A stretch of DNA of 64,000 nucleotides from Candidatus Hydrogenedentota bacterium. Lineage in GTDB: Bacteria; UBA8481; J006. How positions within the stretch are numbered: position 1 is the stretch's first letter; each line of letters starts with the position of its first letter. The notes under the pieces were generated by a model that was given only the letters and a program-made list of their open reading frames with translations, made no database searches and was not told the origin of the DNA. Below, one piece after another: positions 3,995-64,000 of the stretch. A program made the translations under genes and the position numbers. Where the stretch lies: assembly GCA_003697085.1 (NCBI GenBank), contig RFFU01000078.1, forward strand, positions 3,152-67,151, given 5' to 3'.

Positions 3995-4064
3995 AGGCCG
4001 ATGCCTCGGAGGCGGCCAGGATGGCCGCCGAGAAAGAGTGAAAGACGATATTGGACAACTAGAA

Positions 4065-5946: not shown

Positions 5947-5950
5947 AGTT

Positions 5951-31607: not shown

Positions 31608-31630
31608 TTGAAAGGAATCGCGACGGGAAA

Positions 31631-32653
31631 ATGGAAGAGTTCGAGAAAAAGAGGATCGCCCTGATCGGCGGTGCGGGATTCATAGGGCACCATTTGGCCT
31701 TGGCTCTGAAAGAAGAAGGGGCGGAGGTGTTTGTTTTGGACAGCCTCCAGGTCAATAATATTCTCGCCTTCACCGTCACCGATGATATTCCCAACAAGGA
31801 CCTCTACCTTTCGATTCTGAATTCCCGGCTCGACCTCCTCAGGGAAGCGGGCATTCCTCTCTATATTCAGGACGCTCGGGACTATCACACACTTTCCAAA
31901 CTTCTCGGTGCCATCGATCCTGATACCATCATTCATCTCGCGGCCGTCGCTCACGCAGGCAAATCAAACAAAGATCCTTACAGTACATTCGACCACAGCC
32001 TGAGAACGTTGGAAAATGCACTGGATTTCGCTCGAGGCGAAAACATGAATGTTTCGCATTTCATCTATTTCTCCTCGAGTATGGTTTATGGACATTTTCC
32101 GTCGGGCGAGGTTACGGAGGAAACACCGTGCAACCCCTTGGGCATTTACGGGGCCCTGAAATTCGCGGGAGAAAAGATCGTGATCGCATACAATCAGGTG
32201 TTCGGCTTGCCATACACAATCGTTCGTCCATCGGCTCTGTATGGGGAACGTTGCGTCAGCCGACGCGTGGGACAAATCTTCATCGAAAACGCGATGAGAG
32301 GACTCGATATCTCGGTAAACGGGGATGGAAATGACAGATTGGACTTCACGTATATCGGAGATCTCGTGGAAGGAATTAAATGCGTGCTCCGTTCCCCCGC
32401 CTCGCGGAACGAAATCTTCAATCTCACTTATGGCGAATCGCGGACGATCGGACAGATGGCGAACATCTTGCGGAAACACTTTCCGAATGTCGAGATCCGA
32501 TACCTTCCGAAGGATGAACTGACGCCGGACAGGGGGACGCTGAGCGTCGAAAAAGCGCGAAAATTGATCGGTTACGAACCCAAGTATCCGTTGGAGCGGG
32601 GATTCCCGGAATACATTCGTTGGTACCGCTCGATTTGGCCTGAAAGAAAATAA
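31631..32653 (+). CDS. NAD-dependent epimerase/dehydratase (extended SDR, nucleotide-sugar type)
   Basis: Motifs seen: IALIGGAGFIGHHLA and YGALKFAGE (YxxxK). An alternative TTG start at 31604 would overlap the upstream stop. Confidence 0.88.
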   Translation: MEEFEKKRIALIGGAGFIGHHLALALKEEGAEVFVLDSLQVNNILAFTVTDDIPNKDLYLSILNSRLDLLREAGIPLYIQDARDYHTLSKLLGAIDPDTIIHLAAVAHAGKSNKDPYSTFDHSLRTLENALDFARGENMNVSHFIYFSSSMVYGHFPSGEVTEETPCNPLGIYGALKFAGEKIVIAYNQVFGLPYTIVRPSALYGERCVSRRVGQIFIENAMRGLDISVNGDGNDRLDFTYIGDLVEGIKCVLRSPASRNEIFNLTYGESRTIGQMANILRKHFPNVEIRYLPKDELTPDRGTLSVEKARKLIGYEPKYPLERGFPEYIRWYRSIWPERK

Positions 32654-32787
32654 GACCGGCGACTTTTTCACCAGAGGATGTGTTCCGACGGGAGATTTTT
32701 GTCACCTCCGAAGTTGCGAACGAAACCGCCGGCTTTTTCGAAAGGACAATGTTTTGTGGAAAAGAAAGAGTTTAGGGAGGAAAAAAA

Positions 32788-34596
32788 ATGAGAGCGATTC
32801 TGGGTATTCAAGAGGCTCACGATGCTTCAGCCGCCTTGATGGTGGACGGCCGTATCGTGGCGGCGGCTCAGGAGGAACGTTTCTCGGGCTTAAAAGGCGA
32901 CTATGGCTTTCCCCGCCAAGCCGTCGCGTATTGCTTGAGAGAAGCGGGGATCGATTCCTCGGACCTCGATGAGGTCGCGCTGGCTTCTCATTCTTGGAAC
33001 CCCGTCCTCACGAAGATCAAGAGGAACGCGAACTTTTCGGTCGAGGATTGGGTCAAGGAACAACACGACTACTGGTATCCCACGAAATACGAAAAGAAAA
33101 ATGTCGTCTACTACGATCTCTGGAAAGATCGGAAGGATTTTCGCTTCGACGATTTTTATCCGATGGAGGGCATCCTCCAGGGATATATGGACCCGGTGGA
33201 AATGGAGAAAATGAAGGAACTGAGACTTCAAACCGTGGCGGACTACCTTCGCCTGCCTCGGGAGCGTGTTCGTACGGTCACACACGAGGATTGCCATCGG
33301 TTCTACGCTTATTTTGGAAGCCCACTTCGTGGAGAAGTCCTTTCGTTGACCTCGGAGGGCATCGGAGATTATTCGAACGGCACGGTCGGTATCTTTTCCG
33401 AAAAGGGATTCCGCGAATTGGCCCACACGAAAGACAATCACATCGGACACATTTATCAATATGTAACGCTTCTTTTGGGAATGAAGCCCGCGCAACACGA
33501 GTACAAGGTTATGGGCTTGGCGCCGTACGCCAACGCGAGGGAACTCGAAAGGAGTTATCGCGTTTTCGAACGAGTGTTGAAGGTGGATGGATTGAAGATT
33601 GTCTTCGATCAGGAACCGCCCGACCTCTATTTTCACTTCCGAAAAGCGCTTGAAGGCCATCGTTTCGATGGAATCGCGGGAGCGGCGCAGAAGATGGTGG
33701 AGGAACTCCTTTGCGCTTGGGTGAGGAATTGTATTGCGGAAACCGGGTTGCACCGCGTAATCTTCTCCGGAGGGGTCGCCCAAAACATCAAGGCCGATAT
33801 GAAGATCGCTCAGATGGATGAAGTGGAGGACATCTTTGTCTGTCCCGCCGCCGGCGATACCTCTCTTCCTCTCGGGGCGTGCTACTTGGCGATGTGGGAA
33901 TTTTTAAAGAAGGAAGGGTTGAGCGCGGACCGGCTCCTCCCCCTCGACACGGCCTATCTCGGTCCCCAATTTACCGACGAAGAAACCCGAAGGGTCATCG
34001 AGGAGACGAAAGCGGCGGAACGGTACGATGTTCGGGAGCATGTCGCCCCGGCCGAAGTGGCCCGTTTGCTGGCGGAGGGGAAAATCATCGCGCGGTGCGC
34101 CGGTCGCATGGAATTCGGCCTGCGTGCCCTTGGAAATCGCTCGATTCTTGCCGACCCCCGCCATCCGCAAACCGTGCGAAAGATCAATGAAGCGATCAAG
34201 TTTCGGGATTTTTGGATGCCGTTTACTCCCTCGATTTTGGCGGAGCGGGAGAGCGAATACATCGTGAATCCGAAAGGTTTGAAGGCCCCTTTTATGACGA
34301 TGGCCTTTGATTCCACCGCCCGAGCACGACGGGAGCTTCCGGCGGCGTTGCATCCCGCCGATGAAACCGCCCGACCGCAAAGCCTCGAAAAACGACACAA
34401 TCCGATCTACCACGCGATTATTTCGGAATTCGAGAAGATAACCGGAGTCGGAGGGATCTTGAATACGAGTTTCAATTTGCACGGATATCCGATCGTGCTC
34501 GGCCCGAAGGAAGCCCTCTTCACCTTGGACAATTCCGAACTCGACGGCGTCCTTCTCGGAGACATCTTGGTCAGCCGGCGCGCTCCGATGTCCTGA
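32788..34596 (+). CDS. NodU/CmcH-family carbamoyltransferase
   Basis: The N-terminus is MRAILGIQEAHDASAALMVDGRIVAAAQEERFSGLK. The protein is 602 aa, and GGGAGG precedes the ATG. Confidence 0.9.
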   Translation: MRAILGIQEAHDASAALMVDGRIVAAAQEERFSGLKGDYGFPRQAVAYCLREAGIDSSDLDEVALASHSWNPVLTKIKRNANFSVEDWVKEQHDYWYPTKYEKKNVVYYDLWKDRKDFRFDDFYPMEGILQGYMDPVEMEKMKELRLQTVADYLRLPRERVRTVTHEDCHRFYAYFGSPLRGEVLSLTSEGIGDYSNGTVGIFSEKGFRELAHTKDNHIGHIYQYVTLLLGMKPAQHEYKVMGLAPYANARELERSYRVFERVLKVDGLKIVFDQEPPDLYFHFRKALEGHRFDGIAGAAQKMVEELLCAWVRNCIAETGLHRVIFSGGVAQNIKADMKIAQMDEVEDIFVCPAAGDTSLPLGACYLAMWEFLKKEGLSADRLLPLDTAYLGPQFTDEETRRVIEETKAAERYDVREHVAPAEVARLLAEGKIIARCAGRMEFGLRALGNRSILADPRHPQTVRKINEAIKFRDFWMPFTPSILAERESEYIVNPKGLKAPFMTMAFDSTARARRELPAALHPADETARPQSLEKRHNPIYHAIISEFEKITGVGGILNTSFNLHGYPIVLGPKEALFTLDNSELDGVLLGDILVSRRAPMS

Positions 34597-35676: not shown

Positions 35677-36786
35677 ATGAGCACCGTTTCAAAAATCGAT
35701 TTCGCGTCTTCGATACGCTGTCTCTCATGGAAAAGATCGGGTTCGGGGGTGGACGACGGCACTGCTTCGCGGCGGAATACGAATTCGCCAGTGAAACAGA
35801 TTCTTTTCCTTTTTCTCGTGGTTCTCGCGTTGACGGGTTCGCCTCTGTTTCTTGGTTCGCCCGCCGCCGCTGCTGGAGCCGTGGTTCCGGCGGGCGCGCG
35901 CGCCGTGATCCCGCCGGATGCTCCCGGAGTGGTCGAGTTCCGGGTGGCCGGCGGTTCCATCGTCTGGGTAACGGCCGTCGGTGACGGTTTGGAAGGAATC
36001 GAGGCGAGTACGAAGGAGGCGAGGGTCTCTCGCAGCGGTACCAATCGCTGGCAGGAAGTTGTCTTACCCGTGGCGGAAGACGGGATCTTGCGCGTTCGAC
36101 TCCATCGCTCTGATGACCGTGGGGTCGTGACGGTCTGGACGTCCTACGGCGTCGGGAAGGTCGTTTCGCCGGCGGATGTAGGGGCCTTCCGGCGAAAAGT
36201 GATTTCCTCCGTCGGCGAGGAGGGAGAAGGAAATTCGCAAGAGAAGCCCCCTTCGGAATACCGCCCGAAGGAGAACGCGAAGGTTCAAGAGAGAAAACCT
36301 TCCTCCTCGACCACGACCGGGAGCAAGGAAGAAGAACAGCCGCGAAAGGAAGCCGTGAAACGAAAGGAAACTTCTCAGAGATCGGAATCGAGCGAAAACG
36401 AAACGGTTCCTCTCCAAAAAAAGGAAAGGGAGAAAAGCGAGGACCGCAGGGCGGCCCGGGCTCGGGAGATGAACGCCGAAATACTCGAACTCGGCCCGGT
36501 AACGATGGAGGCTCCCTTCAACGCGGTGGTCCCCTTAACCGTGGGATCCGGAGGCGAAATAACGGTAAAATTCTATGTTCCGAACAGAGTCCCGTTTCGC
36601 ATCACGATTTTGGGCGCGGATCTTTTCCGATTGAAATCGCTCCGAGGCTTTTTCGATAAGACAGTTTCCGTTTCCACCGAGGAAGGAACGGGAACACTTC
36701 TCGTAAATCCGCCGGACGATGAATATTACCTCCTTGCAGTGCGCGGCAGGGGTACGGTCCTGATGGCGACGGAGAGCCTGAAATGA
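35677..36786 (+). CDS. Hypothetical secreted protein: two beta-rich domains separated by a ~90-aa Lys/Glu/Ser-rich linker
   Basis: A likely real start is GTG 35791, giving MKQILFLFLVVLALTGSPLFLGSPAAAAGA (signal peptide). I recognise no family. Confidence 0.55.
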   Translation: MSTVSKIDFASSIRCLSWKRSGSGVDDGTASRRNTNSPVKQILFLFLVVLALTGSPLFLGSPAAAAGAVVPAGARAVIPPDAPGVVEFRVAGGSIVWVTAVGDGLEGIEASTKEARVSRSGTNRWQEVVLPVAEDGILRVRLHRSDDRGVVTVWTSYGVGKVVSPADVGAFRRKVISSVGEEGEGNSQEKPPSEYRPKENAKVQERKPSSSTTTGSKEEEQPRKEAVKRKETSQRSESSENETVPLQKKEREKSEDRRAARAREMNAEILELGPVTMEAPFNAVVPLTVGSGGEITVKFYVPNRVPFRITILGADLFRLKSLRGFFDKTVSVSTEEGTGTLLVNPPDDEYYLLAVRGRGTVLMATESLK

Positions 36787-37715
36787 AGCGCCGGCGATTC
36801 GTTTCTTCAGCCTTGTTGTGGTTGATGAGCGCCTTCCTGTTCACGTCGGGGGGCACCGTTCGAGCGGCGCGCCCGGGGTTGACTCCCGGTTCAGCGATTC
36901 CCCTCGGAGAGGAGACCGTGACGGGAACCGTTACACGGAATATCTACTACAAGTGGACGGCGTCCGAGAACGGTCTTTTGGAAGTACGCTTGACTCCCAC
37001 GTCGGGGGAAGCGGACTTGGCTCTGATTCATTTTTCGGGCAATCCCACGATCGAATCGCGAAGAGAAGGTCTTTCTCCCGAAGAGGTTGCAATCCGGGTG
37101 CGGAAAGGAGACGAGTACCTTATCCGTGTCAGCACTCCTTTGGGCCGACGCGGAACCTATTCTCTGCGCGTTCGACGCATCGCGGCAGAAAGGGAAATTC
37201 GCGGGTCGGCGGTTGCCGTGCCGCACACGATCTCCTCGGGGAAAACGGCGCTCGAGGCCGTGGAGCTTCCCGTAGGAAAGATTGCACCCGTGTTGGCGCG
37301 TGGAAAACGGTATTTCAAGATCGCCGTGCCCTCGGGGGTCGTTCTGGACTGCCGCATCTATCCGATCAATGCGGATTTGACGGCGGAAGCCGAAATCCGC
37401 TCCGGGGGTCTCACTCTTTCTGCTCGTTCGGCGCGGTCCGGCTTACAGGCGGAAGAGATTCTGTTGCCGCCGAGCGAAGGAGGAATGGTCTATCTCGTTG
37501 TAACCCCGCCGGCCGATTTCACGGCCTTGGCGCGTTATGGAATCGTGGCGAGATTGCGAGAACCCGGAGTCACGCCAGGAAAGAGGGCGGATATTTTCGA
37601 TGATGCGAACCGGCTTCAAGCCTTCTTTCAGAGGTTGGATGCGGGAAGCGGTGTTCCCGCGGACGTTCTTCCGGAAGGGGAAAAAGAGACTCCGAAGGTC
37701 TTGCGCCTGGAGTAA
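36783..37715 (+). CDS. Hypothetical secreted protein with two PPC-like (pre-peptidase C-terminal-like) beta-sandwich repeats
   Basis: The signal peptide is [29 protein letters not shown]. The pattern G..YYKW...NGLLEVRL....GEADLAL.......GDEYLIRVS....GTYSLRV is seen. The start overlaps the upstream stop (ATGA). Confidence 0.6.
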
Positions 37716-51470: not shown

Positions 51471-51981
51471 TCTTCCGATCGTGAAAGAATTTCAATGGAA
51501 AGAGACCCTCTCTCTCCTGTCCGCCTTTTTATCTTAGGCATTATTGACTCCTCCCGAAACAATAACCTTTTCTTCGCTCCAAAAAAAGGACGGAACAGGA
51601 CGTCCAGCCAAAAATCGCTCCCATTGTTCCGGAGTAGGGTTCGACTCGAATTGTGGCGTTATGGCGCCCTCTAACTCAAGAAGGCATTGTCCTCCACAAA
51701 ATGTTTTTCAGAAGGACCTCGATGACGGGCTGTCAAAACGGAAGGATAAAAAACCGAAGATTTTCCGAGGCGCTTTCCCGTGTCCTCTTCCTTTCTTCCC
51801 ACGTTCTGAGCGGCTGTTTTAAGCTAACCCAATAGTAATCAGCCGTTTTACCCCAAACCCGTAGAGAGGAGAGATCACACTCTCGTTCAAGAGGGAGAAA
51901 ACTGAAAGCCGCCACGCTCTTCCCACGAAACGTTTAACGTCACCGCATAAAATTTCCTGCAATGATGTCAGTCCAATCTTC

Positions 51982-53733
51982 TCAACAATCACGCGATATT
52001 TGCCGGCCGGTTTGTTCCTCCTCGAGACGCCGACGGACTTGCTCCACTTCGCGATAGTATTCGTTGTCCAAGTCGACGCCCTTCTGCGCCATAAGTGCAT
52101 AGAGAATCCTATCAAATCCCCAGCCGACGCACCCGGAACAGCGCCGAACATCGTTCGGAGCGGAAAGTTCGAACTCGAACCGCGAATAGAATACTTGTCC
52201 ATGGTTGTTAACGGAAACCGCCGCGATGCGTTTTCCGAGATGTGGTATGGTTAATCGAAACTCCATTTTCGATTCTTCCAGTAATTGGGCCGATTGCTTG
52301 ATCTTGGAATCCTCACCAAAAAACGGGTCGGCCGCGGTATAGATCCCAAAATCGAGATCGAGGATATCCCGAAACCACAACCGAGTTTTCTCCAGAATTT
52401 CTTCCAGTCGTTCCTTGCAGAAAGCGGCATCACCGACGACAACGATTTCCCGCATCCAGAAATTGCGAAGCCGATCGAGAATATCACCCTCGCTCTGTTC
52501 ATTTCGAAAACAATTCGAAGCCGAAGTAAAAATCAAACCATTATGAGGAACCCTTTTTTTCGCCAAAGAGCTAAATATGTGGTAGCATACTGTTGGACTC
52601 GCTAGACCTCTGAAATGGCTTTCGGGAAGCACGGATTGCACCGTAAGGGCTTGGTGTTTAAAGGAATTGAGATACTGGCTTCGTGCGGCATTGGTTTGGT
52701 CGAGAATCGCCGGAACCTTTACCTCTTTCGCTCCAAGTTCTTTTGCCATCTGAAGAATAAAAAAATCGAGAGTAGAGAAGAGTCGCGTCACCTTCGAGCC
52801 ATAGACCACCAACCCATCTCCCACCGGCCGGATTTCATCGTATTCCCGGAGAAGCCGTGGAAAATCCGATGTCTTCTTGACGGTCCCGACGTTTTCGTAT
52901 TTGACACGCGAACGCGCCGTTCGAAGCCATTTTCTCTGCTCCCTCGGCCGCGATAAAAAGGAGATCAGATAAAAGCGATCTTCTTTCAGTTTCTCGCCTA
53001 TGACGCGATCTATATCTCGCGCTCGGAAGAGCACCAATGGCGCTCCATGAAACGTCGTTCTGCGGGCCAAATCGCGGCGGACGAGTTCCTCTTCCAAATC
53101 CTGCCAGCTGTCATCTATGTCCAGTTCCCGATATCGAACGTAGTAACGGCTTTTGACTCGAAATTCCTCCGTACCGTCCTTGATCGGTCCCCAGAAATCC
53201 TTGTAATAACGATAGGGCACGCCATATTTTTCTTCCGAAGCATAGACGCACGTGGCCCCTTTTTGGATGGGTATCCCAAACATCAAGTAGAGAAAGTCGT
53301 GTTCGAACATCTTAGCGAAAAAGGACTTCGGTCCAAAACACTCGTAACTATCGATTCGCAACAATTCATCCGCGGCCGGACCCAAGCCCGCATAGGAGAA
53401 GATCGGATGGCGCGACCGCTTTACTCCCGGATAGCGACGAAAATAGTCGGTAAGCGCTCCGACCGTGGAGGGGGTCTCCGCGACATCATAAAGTTCGCCG
53501 GAACACGCCGAATATGTGAAGGTCGGCATCAATAACGTTCCGGCTCTTCCCACCGCAGCGATGAGCGTCTCAGTATAGACCCTGAACAGCGCCTCAACCC
53601 CCTCTTTCGCGACCAAAGGGCGTAAATCCTTGGGCACTCCGAAAGCGGAAGCATCGCTGTGCACCGCAACGACGTCTCCTTCTTTCAACCCCAAGCTTCT
53701 TAAAACGTCCAGAAGTTCTTCATATACCGTCAT
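51982..53733 (-). CDS. Fusion protein: N-terminal AAC(3)-family (Antibiotic_NAT-like) N-acyltransferase domain plus C-terminal truncated class-II aaRS-like domain resembling amino acid:[carrier protein] ligases
   Basis: N-terminal half: LRSLGLKEGDVVAVHSDASAFG, GTLLMPTFTYS, TPSTVGALTDYFRRYPGVKRSRHP. After a basic linker at about aa 256-300, the C-terminal half shows DGLVVYGSKVTRLFSTLD...VKVPAILD...SQYLNSFKHQ, class II motif 2 CFRNE...RLRNFWMREIVVVG, and motif 3 GCVGWGFDRILYAL. There is no tRNA-binding arm. Confidence 0.7.
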   Translation of the reverse strand: MTVYEELLDVLRSLGLKEGDVVAVHSDASAFGVPKDLRPLVAKEGVEALFRVYTETLIAAVGRAGTLLMPTFTYSACSGELYDVAETPSTVGALTDYFRRYPGVKRSRHPIFSYAGLGPAADELLRIDSYECFGPKSFFAKMFEHDFLYLMFGIPIQKGATCVYASEEKYGVPYRYYKDFWGPIKDGTEEFRVKSRYYVRYRELDIDDSWQDLEEELVRRDLARRTTFHGAPLVLFRARDIDRVIGEKLKEDRFYLISFLSRPREQRKWLRTARSRVKYENVGTVKKTSDFPRLLREYDEIRPVGDGLVVYGSKVTRLFSTLDFFILQMAKELGAKEVKVPAILDQTNAARSQYLNSFKHQALTVQSVLPESHFRGLASPTVCYHIFSSLAKKRVPHNGLIFTSASNCFRNEQSEGDILDRLRNFWMREIVVVGDAAFCKERLEEILEKTRLWFRDILDLDFGIYTAADPFFGEDSKIKQSAQLLEESKMEFRLTIPHLGKRIAAVSVNNHGQVFYSRFEFELSAPNDVRRCSGCVGWGFDRILYALMAQKGVDLDNEYYREVEQVRRRLEEEQTGRQISRDC

Positions 53734-53742
53734 ATTCTCGAT

Positions 53743-54000
53743 TCAGCCCGTTGCTCTCTCCACATAATCGACGAGGTCTGAAAATGTTCCTATCTCCCTG
53801 AACTCCTCCGGTCCGATTTCAATATCAAAACGCTCCTCAATCGCCATTAAATAGGTTAAATGCTTGAAAGAATCCCACCCTGGTAAATTTCTGATCTCCG
53901 TCGAAAGCGAATATTTCTCGATATCCGAAAGGTGGAATGGTAAAGTCGCCAAAACGTTTTTCAACTCCGCGAATATGTCGCTCGAATTCTGTTTCGTCAT
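53743..54000 (-). CDS. Phosphopantetheine-attachment carrier protein (DltC-like ACP)
   Basis: An 85-aa protein. LPGWDSFKHLTYLMAIEERFDIEI places the Ser in a DSF context, as in D-alanyl carrier proteins. The ATG overlaps the upstream stop (ATGA). Confidence 0.8.
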   Translation of the reverse strand: MTKQNSSDIFAELKNVLATLPFHLSDIEKYSLSTEIRNLPGWDSFKHLTYLMAIEERFDIEIGPEEFREIGTFSDLVDYVERATG

Positions 54001-54437
54001 TGTCCCTCCCTCTTCCGACCCGTGATCTCTATTAAACCAACATGCGGATGGAAAAAGTGAGCCGCCCAGAAACCCGGCGTCACTTGCGACGCAAATGGTT
54101 CCGTTACGAGAAAGAACCCCTGCTTCTGAAGCCGCTCCTTATCTCGCGAAAAATCCGTTACCGCGAAGCAAATATGATACAGTTGGCTCTCTCGTGTTTC
54201 AATAAGATTCTCGACCGGATTCCCTTTCTCCGCCGGTTCGACAAGTTCAATCTTGTGGTCAGTCCAGGGTGCTCCAAGATATGTGATGAAAACCTTTTGT
54301 TCTGGCTCAAGCTTCTTGTAAGTCCTTATTTCAGGATAAAAAATCGAAAAAAACCTTATCGCGGCGTCGGTAGAACGCACCGCATAAGCAATATGATCGA
54401 GTTGGCCCCCGGGAAAAATATTTGAAACATCACCCAT
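53997..54437 (-). CDS. VOC-family protein (glyoxalase/methylmalonyl-CoA-epimerase-like)
   Basis: From ORF 53997..54512, trimmed to MGDVSNIFPGGQLDHIAYAV. A second module shows LYHICFAV. This is the paired beta-alpha-beta-beta-beta pattern. Confidence 0.8.
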   Translation of the reverse strand: MGDVSNIFPGGQLDHIAYAVRSTDAAIRFFSIFYPEIRTYKKLEPEQKVFITYLGAPWTDHKIELVEPAEKGNPVENLIETRESQLYHICFAVTDFSRDKERLQKQGFFLVTEPFASQVTPGFWAAHFFHPHVGLIEITGRKREGQ

Positions 54438-54705
54438 GGAAGTTTCGCCCCCAAAGGGAGTCCGCGGTGCCTTCGCCGGTCGTCTCCTTTTTCTCCATCG
54501 CTTCCGAACCACTCACACGATCCTGGCCCAAGAAAACCATCGCCTTCTCCTTCAATTCCTTCCGCCAGCGCGAAAAACGGCATAAACCACGTTGGTGAAC
54601 TTACAGAAACCGATTCGTCTTGTCCACTGCGAAGATTTCGCACGGGACTGTTTCATCGAAAATTCCTCTTGAAGGAAGACAATAGCAGGTCTAGAGTCCG
54701 ACCTT

Positions 54706-57384: not shown

Positions 57385-59049
57385 TCATCCAAAGACGACC
57401 CAGCGCCAAAGGTGCGGCACCGAGAGGAAAATCCAGTCCCACAGAAGTTGGACGCCGAGAAGAAGTGAAAAGATTCGTTCTCCACGCCTCGTTCCGCAAA
57501 ACACCTTCACTTTCACGGCCCAAAAAGGAATCCACAAGGGAAGAACGGGAATGAGGTATCTCAGATGCGGCCAGGAATCGAAGGTGTGGGGATAGGTGAT
57601 AATCACCGCAAGGTAGAGCAGGGATATCCAGAGGAAGGAGCGCACCAGGCGCCGCTCCTCATTCCGGCATCGTGATTCCCCCGCTATCCTCCGGCGTCGC
57701 CAGGGAAACAAGAGAACGAGCCAGGGGGGAAGATGGACGAAGAGCCCGATCTCGACGGAAAAGAGGTGGGCGTAGATCGCGCGGACCCATCGAGTCGGCT
57801 CCCAGAAATGCACTCCCTTGAGGCCGTAGGCGTGCGGGAGATGGTGGGGAAAGGAAAAACCAAATATCGCCGCCAAGCCCAAGAACGACGGAACCGCCCC
57901 GAGACCGAGTCCGGCCAGAACCCGGCGGCGCTTCCGAGAGAACCAGAAGAACGCAATCAGAAACGGCAATCCCACGAGCCCGAGGCGTTCGTGAAAGATT
58001 GGTGTGACCGTTGCCAGAAAGCTGCCTGGAAAGGGATCGGCATTGGTCCGAATAATTCGTTCGAGTGCGAACATCAAGGCGGGGACAATCGCGAAAAAAA
58101 GGCCTTCCGGTTGGGTATTCGTCGTGTAATAGAGAAAGGGGGTCATGGAACCGACCGCGATGAATACGGGGAGCGAAAAAAGATCCAATTCAACAAGCAT
58201 TTTCGTCAGGAAGAAGATTCCGATTGCGTAGGAAAACAGCGTGGGAAGATAGGCGATCCACCATCGGACCATCGGCACGGGAACGTGGGAGGCAACCGCG
58301 ACGAAGGGAGCCAACAGCAGGGGGTATCCGAAGGGACGTTTCGACCAAAGATAAATCGGCGTGCCTCTTTCGAGGTTGAAGGTGTACCACGTGAACGAAG
58401 ACGGGATCTTGCCGAAGTAGAATTCTGTCATTTTTCCTTCCCTTGTCACTCCATCGACACGCGGAACGCCGTGGTCGGCGATTCCCAGCGCTGCCGCCAC
58501 ATAATCTCCCTCGTCGGATTCGTTCGGCGGCTGCGTCGAGACCGCGAACGAAAGGAGAAAGACACCGAAAAAGAGGGCGGAGATAAGGCGCTTGGCGTCA
58601 GGCCTTGTTGTTTCTCGAAGGGTATGCTTCATAAGAAGCGCGGTGGCTGTTCCCGTTCCGAAAATCCACGCGGCGGAGAGGAAATGCTTGGCTGGTCCCA
58701 GCGGCGTCCCCGTCATCCCGTACCGTCCCTCGGGAAAAAGAAAAATCCCCCAAGGAAGAAGCACCGCCCCCCACGGCAGCCATGCTTCGATCATATTTTC
58801 CGTCTCCGCCTTGAAAAGCCACGCGAGCAAGGCGGTCCAAAGGATTGAGAGGCAGAAGCCGCCGGACGCGAGAATGGTTCCGGCGCGGATCATTATCTTC
58901 GTGGGAACCGCCGTGGGATGAGAACAGACGTGGCCCGCGGCAAGGGGAAGATAGAGAGCAAGCAAGAGTCCGGCCGTCAACCCCGGCAGGCCGCGATTAA
59001 GAAGGCGTTTCAAACTATTCTTTCCTGTCTCGCTGTTATCGAGAAACAT
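57385..59049 (-). CDS. GT-C-type (PMT_2/ArnT-like) membrane glycosyltransferase
   Basis: From ORF 57385..59364, trimmed to MFLDNSETGKNSLKRLL because the longer version overlaps a credible divergent gene. A first-loop motif, NESDEGDYVAAALGIADHG, is present. The protein is polytopic. Confidence 0.65.
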   Translation of the reverse strand: MFLDNSETGKNSLKRLLNRGLPGLTAGLLLALYLPLAAGHVCSHPTAVPTKIMIRAGTILASGGFCLSILWTALLAWLFKAETENMIEAWLPWGAVLLPWGIFLFPEGRYGMTGTPLGPAKHFLSAAWIFGTGTATALLMKHTLRETTRPDAKRLISALFFGVFLLSFAVSTQPPNESDEGDYVAAALGIADHGVPRVDGVTREGKMTEFYFGKIPSSFTWYTFNLERGTPIYLWSKRPFGYPLLLAPFVAVASHVPVPMVRWWIAYLPTLFSYAIGIFFLTKMLVELDLFSLPVFIAVGSMTPFLYYTTNTQPEGLFFAIVPALMFALERIIRTNADPFPGSFLATVTPIFHERLGLVGLPFLIAFFWFSRKRRRVLAGLGLGAVPSFLGLAAIFGFSFPHHLPHAYGLKGVHFWEPTRWVRAIYAHLFSVEIGLFVHLPPWLVLLFPWRRRRIAGESRCRNEERRLVRSFLWISLLYLAVIITYPHTFDSWPHLRYLIPVLPLWIPFWAVKVKVFCGTRRGERIFSLLLGVQLLWDWIFLSVPHLWRWVVFG

Positions 59050-59217
59050 CTTTGTATCCGGAGTGTGGGCTGCCGGACTTCGAAACTCGATGGAGTCTGC
59101 CGAAATCTCTCGAAAAATTTTTTCCCCCCGAACCTCTTTGCTTGATCCCGGTTTTCGTTTCTCCCCTTCGGAATCTTTCCCTTTGGAAATTTTTTTTGGC
59201 AAAATAGGGATTCTGAA

Positions 59218-59592
59218 ATGGAACAGAGGACTCCAAAAGAGGGGCGCGTTCCCGTGGCCGTTTACGATGGCCGCTGCGGGCTCTGCAGGAACTTCGCGGC
59301 ATTGTTGCGGAAGCAGATTCCACTCGAGGATCTCGATGTTGTCCCCTGTGGGTCGCCTCTCCAAAAGAAGCTGGCGCCCGAGGCGAACGAAGCCTGCCGA
59401 ACATCATTCGTGATTGTTGAGCCCGACGGTCGCGTTCTCTCGGGAGGAGACGCGGCGGCGCGCGCCGTGGCGATGGCACCCCGCCTGAAGCCGTTCCGTT
59501 GGATGATCGACAGCCGCGCGGGACGAAGCGTCGCCCGGCGCGTCTATCGGGGAACGCAATGGTTGCGCCGCCGACGGCGCTGTTGTGAATAA
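59218..59592 (+). CDS. DCC-family thiol-disulfide oxidoreductase (DUF393)
   Basis: It contains VAVYDGRCGLCRNFAALLRK. Confidence 0.75.
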   Translation: MEQRTPKEGRVPVAVYDGRCGLCRNFAALLRKQIPLEDLDVVPCGSPLQKKLAPEANEACRTSFVIVEPDGRVLSGGDAAARAVAMAPRLKPFRWMIDSRAGRSVARRVYRGTQWLRRRRRCCE

Positions 59593-61262: not shown

Positions 61263-62035
61263 CGGGGATCCCCGGCGCGGCTCGTCCGAAATTTCTCGAC
61301 GAGGCTCTTTACCTCGCCGAATCGCCGGACATGGCGGAGAAAAGCGCCACCGATCAGAACGGCGTCGGCCCGCTGCGGCAGATCCTCCGGGCTTTCATAG
61401 CCTGACTCGGCGACAAGAAGGTAGCCGGCAGGAACATCCCGCGCCAGTTCCCGCGCTCGATTTGCATCGGTTTCGTACGAAGGACTCGAAAGATCGCGAT
61501 TGTTGATCCCGACGATCTCGGTGTTTCGTGGAAGGCGTTTCAGGTCCTCGGCCGAATGGATCTCGACGAGAACATCGAGTTGCGCGTCGCGTGCCTCGTC
61601 CAAGAGGGCTTCTAGGACCGCGTCCTCGAGAAAAGCGACGATGACGAGAACGGCGTCGGCTCCGAGCACTACGGATTCGCGGATCTGTTCGGGCGCGAGG
61701 AGAAAATCCTTGCGGAGAACGGGCAGCGACGTCTTCGCCGCCAGGTCTTCGAATTCCTCCGGGCTCATTCCAAAATGTCGATCCGAGAGGATCGAAAGGG
61801 CGTCGACTCCGGCCGCCTCGTATGCCTCCAACACCGGCCTCGGCTCGACCTCAAAGGAACCGGTGGACGGAGAGGAACGTTTGATCTCGGCGATGATGGA
61901 AAGACCGTCACGTGCCAACGCCTTCCGAAAGGAATATCGCCCCCGCCTCCGAGAACGCTTTTCCCACGGGCGCTCCTTCCGAAGACGTTCCACCTCCGCC
62001 TGTTTGGCCTCGAGGATTGTCTCGACGGAAATCAT
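61259..62035 (-). CDS. trpC: Indole-3-glycerol-phosphate synthase
   Basis: Motifs seen: IAEIKRSSPSTG, VLRKDFLL and VGINNRDL. Confidence 0.92.
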   Translation of the reverse strand: MISVETILEAKQAEVERLRKERPWEKRSRRRGRYSFRKALARDGLSIIAEIKRSSPSTGSFEVEPRPVLEAYEAAGVDALSILSDRHFGMSPEEFEDLAAKTSLPVLRKDFLLAPEQIRESVVLGADAVLVIVAFLEDAVLEALLDEARDAQLDVLVEIHSAEDLKRLPRNTEIVGINNRDLSSPSYETDANRARELARDVPAGYLLVAESGYESPEDLPQRADAVLIGGAFLRHVRRFGEVKSLVEKFRTSRAGDPR

Positions 62036-63393
62036 CTTTCCTCCATCTGTACCAGCGTTTTTGTCACGCCGCGGATGAGAACATCAGAGTATTTCCAAAG
62101 GCAGCCAAATGCCAGCGCAACAAGACTCGTTCCCGCAAAGGATACGACGTAATGAAGAGACGGCGGGGTTATCGCCGGCAGAAAATCCGGATAACCTTCG
62201 AGGAGAATTCCGAAGGAAAAGAGGGCCCACGTCACTTTCATAGTGCCAAGTCCGTAGTTGAAGAGCACCGGTGGCAGCGACAGGAAGACGATGCTGTCGA
62301 GGAGAAGAATCGCCGTTGTTGCCATTGAAGAAAAACGGGGAAAGGGGAGAAAGGGAGCCGGTTGCAGGAGAAAAAGCACGAGCAGGACAAAGGTCGCCGA
62401 AGCAACAGCCACAACGAACATCACCATCACCTGAATAACGGGAAATCCCCATCGCAGATATTGTCGCAGGATGAAGAGGGAGGCGAGGACGAGCGTGCCG
62501 CGGGAGAAGAGACGAAGAGTGGGGATAATCGTGGGATTCGCGAAGACCGGACCGAAGACTTGGTTTACGGAACCGGCCAGAAAAGAGGCCAGCAAAAGCA
62601 CGAGGAACATCCGCATACTTCGGGAGTCGAAGTGATTCAGGAGAAGAATAAGGAGAAAGACGGTAAGAAGAGAGACTCCGGAGAGGGCAATCCGAGCCAA
62701 GGTCAAGAAATACGGTATCGGAAGAAACGGAGGCACCGCGCTGAAGAGCACAACGAGAAAGAGGCCCCGCCGGACGAAGACCCGCACCTCCGAATAGGTA
62801 AATTCGTGCTCGGGATCCGACCGAAGGTGAAGCCCCGCCAGAAAGAAGAGTTCGAAGGCGGAAAGAGCCAAGGTGGGAAGCGCGAGGGAGAGCGCGGTTT
62901 TTTGTTCGAGAAAGGCAAAAAGGAGAAGGAAAAAGAGGCTTGGCGCGGTTCCTAGAACGATGACCCGCGTTCGGACGATGACGTCGATATCGCGTGACCG
63001 TCCCGGCGCGCCTGCAAGTATGAGCGGAACGAGGAACCCGAAGAATCCGGCAAGAAAGAGTCCGTAACGAGGAAAGAGGGCGAAGACGGAAAGGAGATAC
63101 CACGAATTCCTCCACCGGCCCGTTCGGAAATAAGAGGCCAGAGCGACACAGAAAGAGAGCCCCAAACCCAAGGGAAGAGCGATAACCGGTGAAAACCAGG
63201 AGGGAAGCAATGATTCCGTAAATCGTGAAAAAGCGGCGGAAAAAAGAAGGAGGATTTTGAAGAGAAGGAAGGTCCAGGTTTGAGCCAGAAGGACGGCGCG
63301 AGTCCGGCGGGCGGTCGTTCCGTGATGGCGCAGAATTCCGAAAAGGTAGATCGTGACGGCGAGATTGACGATGAGAAGAAGAACGAGATCCAT
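62032..63393 (-). CDS. Hypothetical polytopic membrane protein (12 or more TM helices)
   Basis: From ORF 62032..63612, trimmed to MDLVLLLIVNLAVTIYLFG at 63393 (TGATG overlap with the upstream gene). Its stop overlaps the trpC start. I recognise no family. Confidence 0.55.
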   Translation of the reverse strand: MDLVLLLIVNLAVTIYLFGILRHHGTTARRTRAVLLAQTWTFLLFKILLLFSAAFSRFTESLLPSWFSPVIALPLGLGLSFCVALASYFRTGRWRNSWYLLSVFALFPRYGLFLAGFFGFLVPLILAGAPGRSRDIDVIVRTRVIVLGTAPSLFFLLLFAFLEQKTALSLALPTLALSAFELFFLAGLHLRSDPEHEFTYSEVRVFVRRGLFLVVLFSAVPPFLPIPYFLTLARIALSGVSLLTVFLLILLLNHFDSRSMRMFLVLLLASFLAGSVNQVFGPVFANPTIIPTLRLFSRGTLVLASLFILRQYLRWGFPVIQVMVMFVVAVASATFVLLVLFLLQPAPFLPFPRFSSMATTAILLLDSIVFLSLPPVLFNYGLGTMKVTWALFSFGILLEGYPDFLPAITPPSLHYVVSFAGTSLVALAFGCLWKYSDVLIRGVTKTLVQMEER

Positions 63394-64000
63394 CACACCG
63401 CCTCCTTCCGCCGTCTTTCGGTCTTCCCCACGAACGGGACCAACACTGCAAGAAGAGTTCCCGCTGCAAGGAGCTGTGCGCCTTTTTCGCTTTGCGTCCA
63501 CATTTCCAAACCCGCAAGCGGAAAAGAAAAGAGAAAGATTTGTCTTATTAGGGAGCGGGGAACCCGTCCGAGGAAGAGCCCCAGACTGACAAACGTAAGA
63601 GGCAGCGTCCACCAGGGCGAAAGAGGGATGAGGTCCAGAAAGAGGAAGAGAAGAAGGGGGAGAAGGAGACGAAGGTCCTTCTTGTCAGGCAATTCCGTCG
63701 AGAAGAAGAAAGCGAGAGAGAGAGCCGAGGCGGCCGCAAAGGAGTAGGAGGGTTGACCTGCTCCACGCGCGAGGAAAAGACCGGAAACGACGGCCGGTAG
63801 AAGCGTCAAAGCGGCCGCGTACCGGACCTTTTCATACGTCATTGCCAAGGCTGCGGGGGGAAAGGAGGCCGTGAGAAGAAGAAGACCTTCCCGCTCCCGT
63901 TCCGGCTGAAAGAAGAAAATGAGAAAGAGCAGAGCGGCGAGGGCGACACCGTTGCGCGCCCCTCCGCGGAAGCCCGACACCGCGAGGGAAAAGACGAGGC
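63393..64000 (-). CDS. Hypothetical membrane protein; the 5' end may lie beyond the window
   Basis: The frame is still open at position 64000 (LVFSLA before the GTG at 63980). It contains several hydrophobic helices. Confidence 0.45.
   Translation of the reverse strand, partial: LVFSLAVSGFRGGARNGVALAALLFLIFFFQPEREREGLLLLTASFPPAALAMTYEKVRYAAALTLLPAVVSGLFLARGAGQPSYSFAAASALSLAFFFSTELPDKKDLRLLLPLLLFLFLDLIPLSPWWTLPLTFVSLGLFLGRVPRSLIRQIFLFSFPLAGLEMWTQSEKGAQLLAAGTLLAVLVPFVGKTERRRKEAV

Follow-up and report, generated by a model that had tools for sequence, protein, structure and literature searches.

A candidate carrier-protein-dependent aminoacyl-transfer cassette with an AAC(3)-fold domain fused to an aminoacyl-tRNA synthetase-like ligase

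A compact three-gene cassette of a Candidatus Hydrogenedentota bacterium, located in the 64,000-nucleotide stretch of DNA that we analysed (hereafter the window), on balance probably encodes a self-contained, tRNA- and NRPS-independent module that transfers an aminoacyl group from a carrier protein onto an amino sugar. This reading draws on homology, gene fusion and synteny. The cassette encodes a VOC-fold protein, a small carrier protein, and a fusion of an Antibiotic_NAT (NAT) domain to a class II aminoacyl-tRNA synthetase (aaRS)-like domain of amino acid:[carrier protein] ligase (aa:CP ligase) type. A preliminary description of this DNA knew of no earlier account of the architecture, and our search of literature and annotations for a function assigned to VOC-carrier-NAT::ligase found none. 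A 2022 review still terms the biological role of aa:CP ligases unknown (PMC9437257). The glycan-cluster relatives reported below suggest a long-missing job for these aaRS-like enzymes, and the NAT domain is a candidate for the downstream step that is absent from the characterised ligases.

Organization and composition of the cassette

The three genes are co-directional on the minus strand and closely packed. The features of the region are:

51471..51981: gap 3' of the fusion gene, 511 nt, with a terminator-like hairpin and T-run at 51605-51588 (-)
51982..53733 (-): Antibiotic_NAT::class II aaRS-like fusion gene, 583 aa, stop codon 51982-51984
51985..52923 (-): ligase domain, aa 271-583, SerRS-derived class II core of the aa:CP ligase type
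52924..52953 (-): inter-domain linker, aa ~261-270
52954..53733 (-): NAT domain, aa 1-260, Antibiotic_NAT / AAC(3)-FrbF fold, predicted aminoacyl-S-carrier:amine N-acyltransferase
53233..53253 (-): NAT catalytic-motif position, T161-C-V-Y164-A-S-E167 against the family pattern T-x-hydrophobic-H-hydrophobic-A-E
53743..54000 (-): phosphopantetheine carrier protein gene, 85 aa
53869..53871 (-): Ser44 codon, predicted site of phosphopantetheine attachment, within the motif G-W-D-S-F
53997..54437 (-): gene for a VOC-fold metalloenzyme, 146 aa counted from the ATG at 54437, accessory module part
54438..54705: divergent intergenic region, 268 nt, with the VOC gene on one side and ilvN on the other, presumed cassette promoter region by position only

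On the minus strand the VOC/carrier junction reads ...GGACAATGACG..., so the stop codon of the VOC gene and the start codon of the carrier gene overlap in the ATGA at 54000-53997. A 9-nt spacer, ATCGAGAAT (53742-53734), lies between the carrier stop TGA and the fusion ATG at 53733, and a GGGAGGG Shine-Dalgarno sequence stands ahead of the carrier gene. According to the ORF listing, the VOC frame is open beyond the ATG at 54437, up to a GTG at 54512. The coordinates, strand, overlap and spacer of the preliminary description were all found in the sequence, and its manC and ilvN neighbours were identified as genes for a ManC-like nucleotidyltransferase (immediately downstream) and IlvN.

The cassette has a GC content of 0.494, which is lower than the mean of the window (0.557) and falls at the 5.5th percentile of equal-sized segments, and GC3 is 0.48-0.55 in its genes against 0.63-0.73 in neighbouring genes. 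The block is therefore AT-richer, as had been claimed, and probably of foreign origin. The long non-coding gaps on either side, also part of that description, are real: gene remnants, Rfam matches and flanking repeats were sought in both and none was found, and promoter-like and terminator-like matches in the two gaps were no more numerous than chance. The regional number of terminator-like sites around 51605-51588 is likewise at chance level, and 54438-54705 has no ORF support, Rfam match or promoter match above chance. Glycan genes, a de-N-acylase and a PPTase were sought near the window locus and none was found; the nearest sugar genes lie ~20 kb off. The window cassette is an isolated, compositionally foreign island. 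A more extreme low-GC block occurs elsewhere in the window, at 3.8-7 kb (GC 0.44).

Ligase domain and carrier protein

Profile searches returned all of the domain families that had been anticipated (Antibiotic_NAT, the aa:CP-ligase family, PP-binding and Glyoxalase/VOC). The assignment of the C-terminal half of the fusion to the class II aaRS/aa:CP ligases is borne out by both sequence and predicted structure. Its best NCBIfam match is NF005479, 'amino acid--[acyl-carrier-protein] ligase' (9e-35), which at 120 bits is below the curated equivalog cut-off of 357 and by sequence covers only the C-terminal two-thirds of the model; tRNA-synt_2b matches aa 400-550 (5.8e-9), and Bll0957 matches at 4e-19 with ~24% identity. 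When the predicted fusion structure was superposed on Bll0957, as had been proposed, the ligase domain gave a TM of 0.80 over ~297 columns (rmsd 3.1; TM 0.80 to 4h2s/3mey). The Zn ligands C383/E429/C535, the motif 2 residues R410/E412 and the motif 3 residue R542 align with their Bll0957 counterparts and do not vary within the clade. The domain lacks a tRNA-binding domain and terminates in a long helix (aa 558-582). The aaRS core had been called truncated; measured against aa:CP ligases this was mistaken, and the model indicates a complete aa:CP-ligase fold. In the fusion model (pTM 0.60) the linker is the sole low-confidence block (pLDDT 59), and its position is that of the stop/start junction between separate NAT and ligase genes in three relatives (loci L007, L013 and L016).

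The carrier protein matches PP-binding at 3.2e-4 and 21.3 bits, barely above the gathering score of 20.8, and NCBIfam ACP models reach 30 bits, under their cut-offs. When it is aligned to solved ACPs the DS serine is in register: Ser44 lines up with the ACP phosphopantetheine 'DS' serine. Of 13 aligned module carrier proteins, 12 share W-D-S, the exception being a weak hit (L006) with L-D-S. A putatively modifiable serine, which the preliminary description required, is present and conserved. A small ORF homologous to the carrier lies directly upstream of NAT in all six metagenome loci, which were recovered through NAT alone, and also in L001, L004 and L021.

NAT domain

The N-terminal half is of AAC(3) type, as originally read: PF02522 (Antibiotic_NAT) matches aa 51-243 at 5.6e-32, and the predicted structure (pLDDT >95) has Foldseek TM values of 0.71-0.77 to AAC(3)-IVa, FrbF, BA2930 and YokD. 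Its AAC(3) equivalog scores are far under the cut-offs (64 against 420; 57 against 270). With the motif register set by profile alignment to BA2930 (TSVHLSE) and YokD (TCFHLAE), the canonical general-base His of the fold is Tyr164 here, and Thr161 and Glu167 are kept. The canonical His is retained in 86 of 104 related NAT representatives and absent in 14 of the 16 ligase-linked clade members, in which His109 is invariant instead; the paired Glu is absent in seven of these 16. Tyr164 at the canonical His position is a signature of the ligase-linked clade. The 16 sequences, at ~40% identity, share 21 invariant positions, including R106, H109, S113, Y174-R175, K178 and R200.

As Tyr164 replaces the family catalytic His, the NAT domain cannot act exactly like AAC(3), and since some clade members have lost the Glu as well, the transfer chemistry is uncertain; the domain could be inactive or have some other activity. 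The earlier label of AAC(3)-type N-acyltransferase thus stands for the fold and falls for AAC(3)-identical catalysis.

VOC protein

The VOC protein matches Glyoxalase_4 (1.5e-11), and its best NCBIfam match is TIGR03081, methylmalonyl-CoA epimerase (2.6e-11; 44 bits against a cut-off of 115). Its best solved relatives are 2qh0/3hdp (4e-18), followed by the methylmalonyl-CoA epimerase 1jc4 (1e-5). The ligand pattern H..E..H..E is kept in the VOC proteins of L004, L021 and L014, all encoded directly upstream of carrier-NAT. In the module the VOC protein is accessory, being found in four of the ~12 loci and missing from most. Its place in an operon with the carrier makes a carrier-bound aminoacyl thioester its likely substrate; the closest solved relative was deposited as a glyoxalase I, not an epimerase, so that of the original methylmalonyl-CoA-epimerase-like assignment the VOC fold holds and the epimerase role stays speculative.

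Relatives and their genomic context

The sample of relatives is small, comprising ~12 independent loci, of which many lie on short contigs. Only two among 1.84 billion representative proteins carry the NAT::ligase fusion, those of the window and L001. The L001 halves share 59-60% and 52% identity with stand-alone genes but just 42.5% and 37.5% with the window halves, and the two fusions arose independently. The same parts, as individual genes lying side by side in the arrangement [PPTase]-[VOC]-carrier-NAT-ligase, occur in ~10 archaeal and bacterial metagenomic loci. A search for the same fusion and for conserved neighbours, suggested at the outset, has therefore yielded both. The NAT and ligase genes adjoin or overlap each other in L007, L013, L016 and L021, and in L004 they are divergent. 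Loci L001, L004, L013 and L017 have a PPTase (ACPS) gene directly upstream, and a dedicated carrier gene also adjoins related ligases in L008, L010 and L011. The wider NAT clade includes PP-binding::NAT and MaoC::NAT fusions. Some close ligases lack a NAT of this type (L008, L018, L020), and the L015 NAT seems to be paired with an ANL adenylating enzyme instead.

All relative loci with NAT and flanking sequence are glycan or nonulosonic-acid clusters. They include NeuB (L001, L016, L021), a CMP-sugar-type cytidylyltransferase (L021, L004), PIG-L (L007) and DUF4910 (L007, L015, L016), as well as DegT aminotransferases, glycosyltransferases, and Wzx or ABC-2 exporters. FrbF, a structural neighbour of the NAT domain, N-acylates a CMP-linked amine. 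Cj1295, of the DUF4910 family, is needed to swap the pseudaminic acid N5-acetyl for another acyl group (PMC3068675), and glycans are known to contain N-(acetyl-D/L-alanyl) and N-acetylglycyl amino sugars (PMC3210612).

Proposed mechanism

We propose that the C-terminal domain of the fusion acts as a zinc-dependent aa:CP ligase which, by homology to Bll0957 and Atu2573, would adenylate a small alpha-amino acid (the precedent is of Gly or Ala type) and thioesterify it to the phosphopantetheine arm on carrier Ser44. The NAT domain, with an active site apparently rewired around Tyr164 and the clade-specific His109, would then transfer this aminoacyl group, bound as a pantetheine thioester, to a substrate amine, as fold, fusion and synteny suggest. 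The most plausible acceptor in the relatives would be either an amino sugar in nucleotide-activated form or a 5,7-diamino nonulosonic acid (pseudaminic/legionaminic type), and a neighbouring PIG-L or DUF4910 (Cj1295-type) de-N-acylase may sometimes free the amine first. The expected product is an N-aminoacyl sugar as in O-antigens and flagellin glycans (N-alanyl/N-glycyl Qui3N/Qui4N etc.). More speculatively, VOC may work at the C-alpha of the carrier-bound thioester, for example in L-to-D epimerisation, on the model of methylmalonyl-CoA epimerase. A scheme of loading the carrier and then discharging it was already part of the preliminary description; it gains support from the conserved carrier-NAT-ligase order in unrelated genomes and the two independent fusions, and further from the PP-binding::NAT fusions, adjacent PPTases and glycan/nonulosonic-acid surroundings.

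Comparison with known systems

The ligase domain resembles the aa:CP ligases Bll0957/Bll6282 of Bradyrhizobium and Atu2573 of Agrobacterium (PDB 3mey, 4h2s) in whole-enzyme fold, Zn triad and motifs 2 and 3, in lacking a tRNA-binding domain and in having a dedicated small carrier encoded next door; it differs, besides the low identity given above, in its fusion to, or immediate juxtaposition with, an AAC(3)-fold domain. Those ligases were reportedly described by Mocibob et al. in 2010 and 2013. The NAT domain shares with the Antibiotic_NAT family (AAC(3), FrbF, YokD, BA2930) its fold, the Thr and Glu of TxΦHΦAE, an R-S-x-H-P motif and the drawing of an acyl group from a pantetheine thioester, FrbF acting on a nucleotide-linked amine, whereas Tyr164, a predicted aminoacyl-S-carrier donor in place of acetyl-CoA and a setting without resistance genes set it apart. 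The VOC protein has the single-chain paired βαβββ fold and H/E/H/E metal ligands of methylmalonyl-CoA epimerase and glyoxalase I, both of which stabilise an enolate beside a thioester-type carbon; it differs from them in scoring under family cut-offs and in sharing an operon with a carrier, and we know of no VOC activity on a carrier-bound aminoacyl thioester.

DltABCD adds D-alanine to teichoic acids, and Vibrio cholerae AlmEFG places glycine on lipid A. Both lead, like the proposed module, from ATP-dependent amino-acid activation through a small dedicated carrier thioester to a cell-envelope glycoconjugate; however, they employ an ANL adenylating enzyme rather than a class II aaRS homologue, an MBOAT or lysophospholipid acyltransferase rather than an AAC(3) fold, and O-acylation across or at the membrane rather than the cytoplasmic N-acylation predicted here. 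The butirosin (BtrI/BtrJ/BtrH), V. cholerae O1 perosamine tetronate and C. jejuni Cj1295-Cj1304 flagellin-glycan systems also convert an acyl group on a dedicated ACP into an amide on an amino sugar, but load it by ATP-grasp or ANL enzymes and have transferase folds that are other or uncharacterised; to our knowledge, an aaRS-like ligase has been reported in none of them. NeuB is accompanied by genes for DUF4910/DUF2172 (Cj1295), an ACP and an 'N-acetyltransferase' (PMC3068675, PMC4000134), and the C. acetobutylicum neighbourhood lists an ATP-grasp 'amino acyl ligase' instead (PMC4000134).

Alternative explanations

In this genome the module might have a non-glycan role, aminoacylating a small soluble amine (a polyamine, aminophosphonate or other metabolite) or making a short peptide-like secondary metabolite. 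The position of the cassette amid housekeeping genes, with no adjoining glycan genes, fits such a role, as do the linkage of the L008 carrier-ligase pair to aminophosphonate genes (PEP mutase::nucleotidyltransferase, TPP decarboxylase), the non-glycan context of the L020 ligase and the membership of FrbF in a phosphonate pathway. We nevertheless consider it unlikely, given the uniformly glycan or nonulosonic-acid clusters of the flanked NAT relatives and the ManC-like gene immediately downstream in the window. It is distinctly unlikely, in our estimate, that NAT depends on acetyl-CoA and acetylates the alpha-amine of the carrier-tethered aminoacyl group, an unlinked enzyme then moving N-acetyl-aminoacyl to the sugar. 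The module has no conserved second transferase, ordinary acetyl transfer to an amine is harder to square with loss of the general-base His, and the acyl groups of MaoC::NAT fusions and C. jejuni-type loci have no amine to acetylate (PMC3068675), so that the clade points to transfer of the thioester-bound acyl itself. Yet characterised Antibiotic_NAT enzymes do use acetyl-CoA (PMC8956665), glycan aminoacyl groups are usually N-acetylated (N-acetyl-alanyl, N-acetylglycyl; PMC3210612), and a carrier-tethered acceptor would explain the tight carrier-NAT linkage and fusions equally well.

The losses of His and Glu across the clade would also suit a catalytically dead NAT-like domain that only docks or scaffolds the carrier, with discharge by another enzyme such as an MBOAT in Dlt-like O-aminoacylation of an extracellular polymer. 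MBOAT genes lie near the carrier-ligase pairs of L008 and L010, and a window MBOAT scoring 354 bits against that of L008 is encoded ~46 kb away in another low-GC block. This we hold to be very improbable in view of the strong conservation of NAT, its very high fold confidence, the Thr161 and Glu167 kept in the window protein and the lack of an MBOAT at most NAT loci. The Pfam name of the N-terminal half and the separate, overlapping NAT and ligase genes of most relatives might be taken to indicate an aminoglycoside-resistance AAC(3) fused by chance to a piece of an aaRS, or two neighbouring genes joined artefactually through assembly or a frameshift. Such an origin is extremely improbable: besides the equivalog scores and the missing catalytic His, the surroundings are a carrier protein and a ligase with no resistance genes, there is another fusion of independent origin, another assembly (Logan SRR7905022) yields the identical 583-aa ORF, and the model is continuous and confident across the junction save for the 10-residue linker.

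Organisation and composition of the cassette

A preliminary description of the window placed three co-directional genes on the minus strand, and the ORF coordinates bear this out:

51982-53733, minus strand: fusion ORF, 583 aa
53743-54000, minus strand: carrier protein ORF, 85 aa
53997-54437, minus strand: VOC ORF, 146 aa from its ATG, with an open frame extending up to a GTG at 54512

The stop/start overlap reported between the VOC and carrier genes is present as ATGA at 54000-53997 on the minus strand, and the gaps beside the cassette, described as unusually long, measure 511 and 268 nt. On the minus strand, the junction between the carrier and fusion genes reads TGA, ATCGAGAAT, ATG, and a GGGAGGG Shine-Dalgarno sequence lies ahead of the carrier gene. 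The two gaps have no Rfam match, and contain no gene remnants, insertion scars or flanking repeats (tblastn with all ORFs of the locus and blastn of flank against flank returned only noise). The frequency of promoter-like and terminator-like sites in the gaps does not exceed that found after shuffling; as these counts are at chance level, the scans were not used as evidence.

At 0.494, the GC content of the cassette lies under the mean of the window (0.557), and its GC3 is 0.48-0.55 against 0.63-0.73 in the genes alongside. Thus, the cassette is probably foreign by composition, and the block at 3.8-7 kb of the window is more extreme still. One flank of the cassette carries genes for a ManC-like nucleotidyltransferase, a class II aldolase and a YggS-like protein, and the other genes for IlvN, IlvC and a DHDPS-family protein; the window also encodes an SLT transglycosylase, a LysM/M23 peptidase and PrfA/PrmC, which mark it as bacterial. 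No tRNA genes, and no Rfam families at the gathering threshold, were found in the whole 64-kb window. The housekeeping proteins of the window fall into clusters of just one or two sequences at 90% identity, which indicates that the source belongs to a sparsely sampled lineage.

The ligase half of the fusion

In the C-terminal half of the fusion (aa 271-583), Pfam recognises a class II core (tRNA-synt_2b, PF00587; 5.8e-9, aa 400-550). The best NCBIfam match of this half is 'amino acid--[acyl-carrier-protein] ligase' (9e-35), followed by methanogen-type SerRS; the score against NF005479 is 120 bits, under the cut-off of 357, and only positions 132-306 of the 318 in the model are matched. Judged by sequence, the ligase half belongs to a distant subfamily of amino acid:[carrier protein] ligases (aa:CP ligases), outside the curated equivalog.

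An AlphaFold2 model of the fusion (38-sequence alignment) has a mean pLDDT of 93.4, with a linker of about 10 residues (aa 261-270) as its sole weak stretch, and a pTM of 0.60; taken together, these values describe two domains that are each confident, with an undefined orientation to one another. In a Foldseek search of the PDB, the C-terminal half matched the whole of the Bradyrhizobium Gly:[carrier protein] ligase (4h2s/3mey; target-normalised TM 0.80, about 297 columns, rmsd 3.1 Å) and also Methanosarcina SerRS. It has the fold of the class II aaRS catalytic core without a tRNA-binding domain; its stand-alone ligase relatives are 297-318 aa long. The aa:CP ligases and methanogen-type SerRS have in common a zinc-binding Cys/Glu/Cys triad. 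Sequence alignment to the Bradyrhizobium ligase Bll0957 pairs 3mey chain residues C151/E196/C299, equivalent to C131/E176/C279, with C383/E429/C535 of the window protein, and places motif 2 (fRxE) at R410/E412 and motif 3 (GxGxxR) at G539...R542. The zinc ligands and the residues of both motifs are invariant in six members of the clade. Because the full fold, the zinc ligands and the motifs are all kept, this half is a complete and, it appears, competent aa:CP ligase. The fold and motifs agree with its earlier assignment to the class II aaRS/aa:CP type; the core had also been called truncated, which it is not when compared with Bll0957.

The NAT half of the fusion

The N-terminal half (aa 1-260) matches Antibiotic_NAT (PF02522; 5.6e-32, fusion aa 51-243) and, by Foldseek against the PDB, AAC(3)-IVa, FrbF, BA2930 and YokD (6mn5, 3sma, 3n0m and 2nyg; TM 0.71-0.77), so that the TTHA0583/YokD-like fold is present. 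Its scores against the NCBIfam AAC(3) models are under their cut-offs (AAC_3_IV, 64 against 420; AAC_3, 56.7 against 270).

Mechanistically, Antibiotic_NAT enzymes are characterised by the motif TxΦHΦAE, whose Glu polarises the His that deprotonates the acceptor amine (PMC8956665). Profile alignment sets TSVHLSE of BA2930 and TCFHLAE of YokD against T161-C-V-Y164-A-S-E167 of the window protein. As this alignment fixes the register, the catalytic His is replaced by Tyr164, with Thr161 and Glu167 retained. The preliminary description of this half as AAC(3)-type holds for the fold, and the missing catalytic His is a correction to it. The His is kept in 86 of 104 NAT-containing representatives; it is absent (Tyr or Ile) from 14 of the 16 members of the ligase-linked clade, compared with four of 88 other relatives. 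Since the losses concentrate in that clade, the substitution is not an oddity of a single sequence. Another histidine, His109, is invariant in the ligase-linked clade and is H, D, E or Q elsewhere.

The sequence evidence thus describes a putative NAT with the fold and most motifs retained and a rewired active site. With the catalytic His missing, the transfer chemistry of AAC(3) is not simply transferable to this protein. The rewired site is compatible with a different donor, as acetyl-CoA is less reactive than an alpha-ammonium thioester. The carrier, ligase, PPTase and glycan genes around the NAT argue against acetyl-CoA as donor and the 3-N position of an aminoglycoside as acceptor.

Rarity of the fusion and recurrence of the module

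A profile was built from the two fusions and run exhaustively with HMMER against 1.84 billion representative proteins, returning 7080 relatives. Among these, both halves are spanned only by the window protein and by P0002, a 569-aa protein with 39% identity to it from an 'uncultured archaeon' MAG; close single-domain versions exist (ligase-only, 297-318 aa; NAT-only, about 260 aa). The contigs of the relatives were scanned with local profiles for gene order. Scans of metagenomes and genomes gave six and five loci, respectively, and our statistics rest on about 12 independent loci.

Gene order and neighbouring genes at relative loci
L001 (uncultured archaeon): PPTase - carrier - NAT::ligase; with NeuB, DegT, PseG-like Glyco_tran_28_C, methyltransferases, sulfotransferase
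L004 (Promethearchaeota): PPTase - VOC - carrier - NAT, ligase divergent; with two GT2 glycosyltransferases, GFO/IDH/MocA oxidoreductase, CTP_transf_3 cytidylyltransferase, three NDP-sugar epimerase/dehydratases, nucleotidyltransferase
L007 (Woesearchaeota): NAT - ligase, genes overlapping; with PIG-L, GT4, Wzx
L013: PPTase - carrier - NAT - ligase
L016: DUF4910 - carrier - NAT - ligase; with NeuB, ABC-2 exporter
L021: VOC - carrier - NAT - ligase, order identical to the window; immediately upstream and co-directional are DegT, CTP_transf_3 and NeuB
L012, L014, L015, L017: carrier - NAT, on short contigs

At all six metagenome loci found via the NAT half alone, the carrier gene lies immediately upstream of the NAT gene. 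The NAT half of L001 is 59-60% identical to stand-alone genes and 42.5% identical to the NAT half of the window fusion; for its ligase half the values are 52% and 37.5% (stand-alone genes from L012 and L004). As the halves of L001 are nearer to stand-alone genes than to those of the window, the fusion arose at least twice. PP-binding::NAT and MaoC-dehydratase::NAT fusions occur as well in the wider NAT clade. Through fusions, gene order and synteny, the NAT is linked both physically and in its evolution to the ligase and to a thioester held on a carrier. The module is scattered over MAGs of Asgard and DPANN archaea and also occurs in a few bacteria, a distribution that suggests it moves horizontally as a small cassette.

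The carrier and VOC proteins

The 85-aa protein has a marginal match to PP-binding (PF00550; 21.3 bits against a cut-off of 20.8). A modifiable serine had been expected in it, and Ser44, within the motif G-W-D-S-F, is aligned to the serine that bears phosphopantetheine in solved ACPs; W-D-S is invariant among the carrier proteins of the module. A carrier gene adjoins the ligase or NAT-ligase genes in the window and at L001, L004, L008, L010, L011, L013, L016 and L021, and an ACPS (PPTase) gene lies directly upstream in L001, L004, L013 and L017.

The VOC protein matches Glyoxalase_4 (Pfam, 1.5e-11) and scores under the NCBIfam cut-offs for methylmalonyl-CoA epimerase (TIGR03081, 44.2 bits against 115) and GloA (16.2 against 165). 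With scores so far under curated cut-offs, this protein and both halves of the fusion are distant relatives rather than members of the named equivalogs. The H/E/H/E metal-ligand pattern is kept in three full-length VOC homologues, and the protein is predicted to belong to the paired βαβββ module superfamily with its metal ligands in place. By profile, its solved relatives are 2qh0/3hdp ('glyoxalase I', 4e-18) and methylmalonyl-CoA epimerase 1jc4 (1e-5); the former may be the C. acetobutylicum 'glyoxalase' CA_C2192, from a neighbourhood with NeuB, ACP, NAT and DUF4910. The VOC assignment first proposed for the protein holds. It is present at four of about 12 loci, and we treat it as an accessory part of uncertain role; as its nearest structure is a 'glyoxalase I', an epimerase function is speculative.

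Glycan context of the relatives

Every NAT-bearing relative locus with flanking sequence is a glycan locus. At three of the loci, a DUF4910/DUF2172/wHTH 'aminopeptidase-like' protein (Cj1295 family, PDB 3k9t family) abuts the module:

L007, 1578-2891
L016, 1421-2785
L015, 3-839

In C. jejuni, Cj1295 is needed for swapping the N5-acetyl of pseudaminic acid for another acyl group (PMC3068675). In C. acetobutylicum, a DUF4910 gene lies beside genes for NeuB, an ACP, an 'aminosugar N-acetyltransferase', a 'glyoxylase' and an ATP-grasp 'amino acyl ligase', a neighbourhood to which the 2014 structural-genomics paper gave no mechanism (PMC4000134). Within the 64-kb window, phmmer and profile searches found no homologues of the PPTase (ACPS), DUF4910, PIG-L, NeuB or DegT, and about 20 kb separate the cassette from the closest sugar-modifying genes.

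More distant aa:CP ligases of classical size also lie in glycan loci, with other candidate transferases. At L011 (6167-10830), a 381-aa aa:CP ligase and a carrier protein are encoded between WbqC-like and GT2 genes and genes for a hexapeptide-repeat acyltransferase and a radical SAM/SPASM protein, with methyltransferases and DegT downstream of the ligase-carrier pair; the name WbqC derives from an O-antigen cluster gene. MBOAT genes occur at the ligase loci L008 and L010. The general picture is modular, with a central carrier protein, exchangeable loaders and dischargers, and use in glycan decoration.

Two observations at individual loci concern the range of loaders and acceptors. On the minus strand of L015 (1957-2148), convergent on the NAT gene, an ANL-type adenylating enzyme is represented by its C-terminal end (...LPTYMLP...NANGKIDRKQL), so that the carrier-NAT core may use a non-aaRS loader in that lineage. 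At L008 (9816-12585, a Pseudobdellovibrionaceae MAG), aminophosphonate biosynthesis genes for a PEP-mutase::nucleotidyltransferase fusion and a TPP-dependent decarboxylase come right after carrier, ligase and methyltransferase genes, and the acceptor amine could also be that of an aminophosphonate head group.

Proposed mechanism and alternatives

From the folds, motifs, gene order, fusions and contexts observed, we infer the following function. By homology, the ligase domain would adenylate a small amino acid and thioesterify it onto Ser44 of the holo-carrier protein, a step we regard as likely. The fusion and the synteny suggest that the NAT domain would then pass the aminoacyl group to an amine, which seems reasonably probable; to judge from the context in relatives, the amine would be on a nucleotide-activated amino sugar or nonulosonic acid, and de-N-acetylation by PIG-L or DUF4910 may sometimes precede aminoacylation. 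Epimerisation or other processing of the thioester at C-alpha by the VOC protein is speculative, and we consider epimerisation rather unlikely. On balance we favour the mechanism as a whole; that the ligase loads the carrier and the NAT discharges it onto an amine had already been proposed in the preliminary description, and the comparative evidence strengthens that proposal. Glycans are known to contain N-(acetyl-D/L-alanyl) and N-acetylglycyl Qui3N/Qui4N (PMC3210612), and Gly and Ala are loaded by those aa:CP ligases that have been characterised (PMC9437257, PMC5370406).

The main rivals concern the NAT and its acceptor. The NAT may instead acetylate the amine of the carrier-tethered aminoacyl group; this keeps the acetyl transfer typical of the AAC(3) fold, and is opposed by the loss of the catalytic His. 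The acceptor could be a non-glycan small molecule, a reading that suits the distance between the cassette and sugar-modifying genes in the window and sits poorly with the glycan genes at the relative loci.

The NAT could also be catalytically dead and serve as a scaffold, with an MBOAT discharging the carrier. For this reading speak the lost catalytic His and the lowest-GC block of the window (3800-7100, about 0.44), where the gene for an MBOAT (DltB/AlgI family) precedes a 382-aa ORF without Pfam match:

4483-5946, plus strand: ORF in the low-GC block
5912-7060, plus strand: ORF in the low-GC block

The window MBOAT matches that of L008 (354 bits, 8e-107), where a carrier-ligase pair without a NAT follows 5 kb downstream; the MBOAT of L010 is also beside a carrier-ligase pair. 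Against the scaffold reading stand the strong conservation of the domain, His109 included, and the absence of MBOAT genes from most NAT loci. The window MBOAT could be a second, Dlt-like outlet for the aminoacyl carrier protein. Two further readings were rejected: an aminoglycoside-resistance gene, given the low AAC(3) scores and the missing His, and an assembly artefact, given that an independent fusion exists and that a second assembly has the identical 583-aa ORF.

Relation to known systems

The ligase half has the structure and motifs of the aa:CP ligases and falls short of the curated equivalog score; the NAT half shares the AAC(3) fold but not its catalytic His. Dlt and Alm systems combine an ANL-superfamily adenylating ligase (DltA/AlmE) with an MBOAT or LPLAT transferase. 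The cassette would work in a like manner, but its ligase is class II aaRS-like and its transferase has the AAC(3) fold, so that it is not a member of either system. We rate carrier-protein aminoacylation of envelope glycans as known logic, and the loading and unloading enzymes as new in these roles.

In 2010, aa:CP ligases were reported to load Gly or Ala onto carrier proteins. A 2022 review still called their biological role unknown (PMC9437257). Public names of the relatives go no further than 'aminoacyl--tRNA ligase-related protein', and our literature search found no functional assignment for aa:CP ligases, for Antibiotic_NAT with a carrier or for aaRS-like glycan enzymes; subscription journals and InterPro may differ. 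As the fusion and the conserved operon name a downstream enzyme and an acceptor class, the role of the aa:CP ligases becomes testable with three small soluble proteins, which turns a 15-year-old question on aaRS-like carrier-protein ligases into a three-protein experiment.

More tentatively, the module may be the missing context of the SerRS-derived aa:CP ligases: a tRNA- and NRPS-independent system in which a synthetase relative loads the carrier and a NAT with Tyr for His aminoacylates nucleotide-activated amino sugars or nonulosonic acids, which would explain the N-alanyl and N-glycyl sugars of O-antigens and flagellin, with the VOC protein as a new aminoacyl-thioester epimerase giving D-aminoacyl versions. 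We find this extended proposal attractive but somewhat less probable than its alternatives taken together. If the mechanism holds, the cassette would supply a biosynthetic route for the aminoacylated amino sugars of O-antigens and flagellin glycans, whose acylating enzymes are to our knowledge mostly unassigned. It would also add aminoacyl transfer, by another catalytic arrangement, to the functions of the AAC(3)/FrbF fold, which is familiar chiefly from antibiotic resistance, bear on the origins of resistance enzymes, and add a third evolutionarily independent amino-acid decoration of the envelope besides Dlt and Alm.

Other features of the window

At 30558-34596, right behind a molybdopterin dehydrogenase operon and about 20 kb from the cassette, a small group of sugar-modifying genes encodes a GFO/IDH/MocA oxidoreductase, an NDP-sugar epimerase/dehydratase and a NodU/CmcH-type carbamoyltransferase. 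Several large ORFs have no Pfam match:

57385-59364, minus strand
62032-63612, minus strand
7561-9072, minus strand
35677-37715, plus strand

Among these is a 659-aa polytopic membrane protein, encoded three genes from the cassette, which by eye looks like a glycosyltransferase-C or ArnT-like protein.
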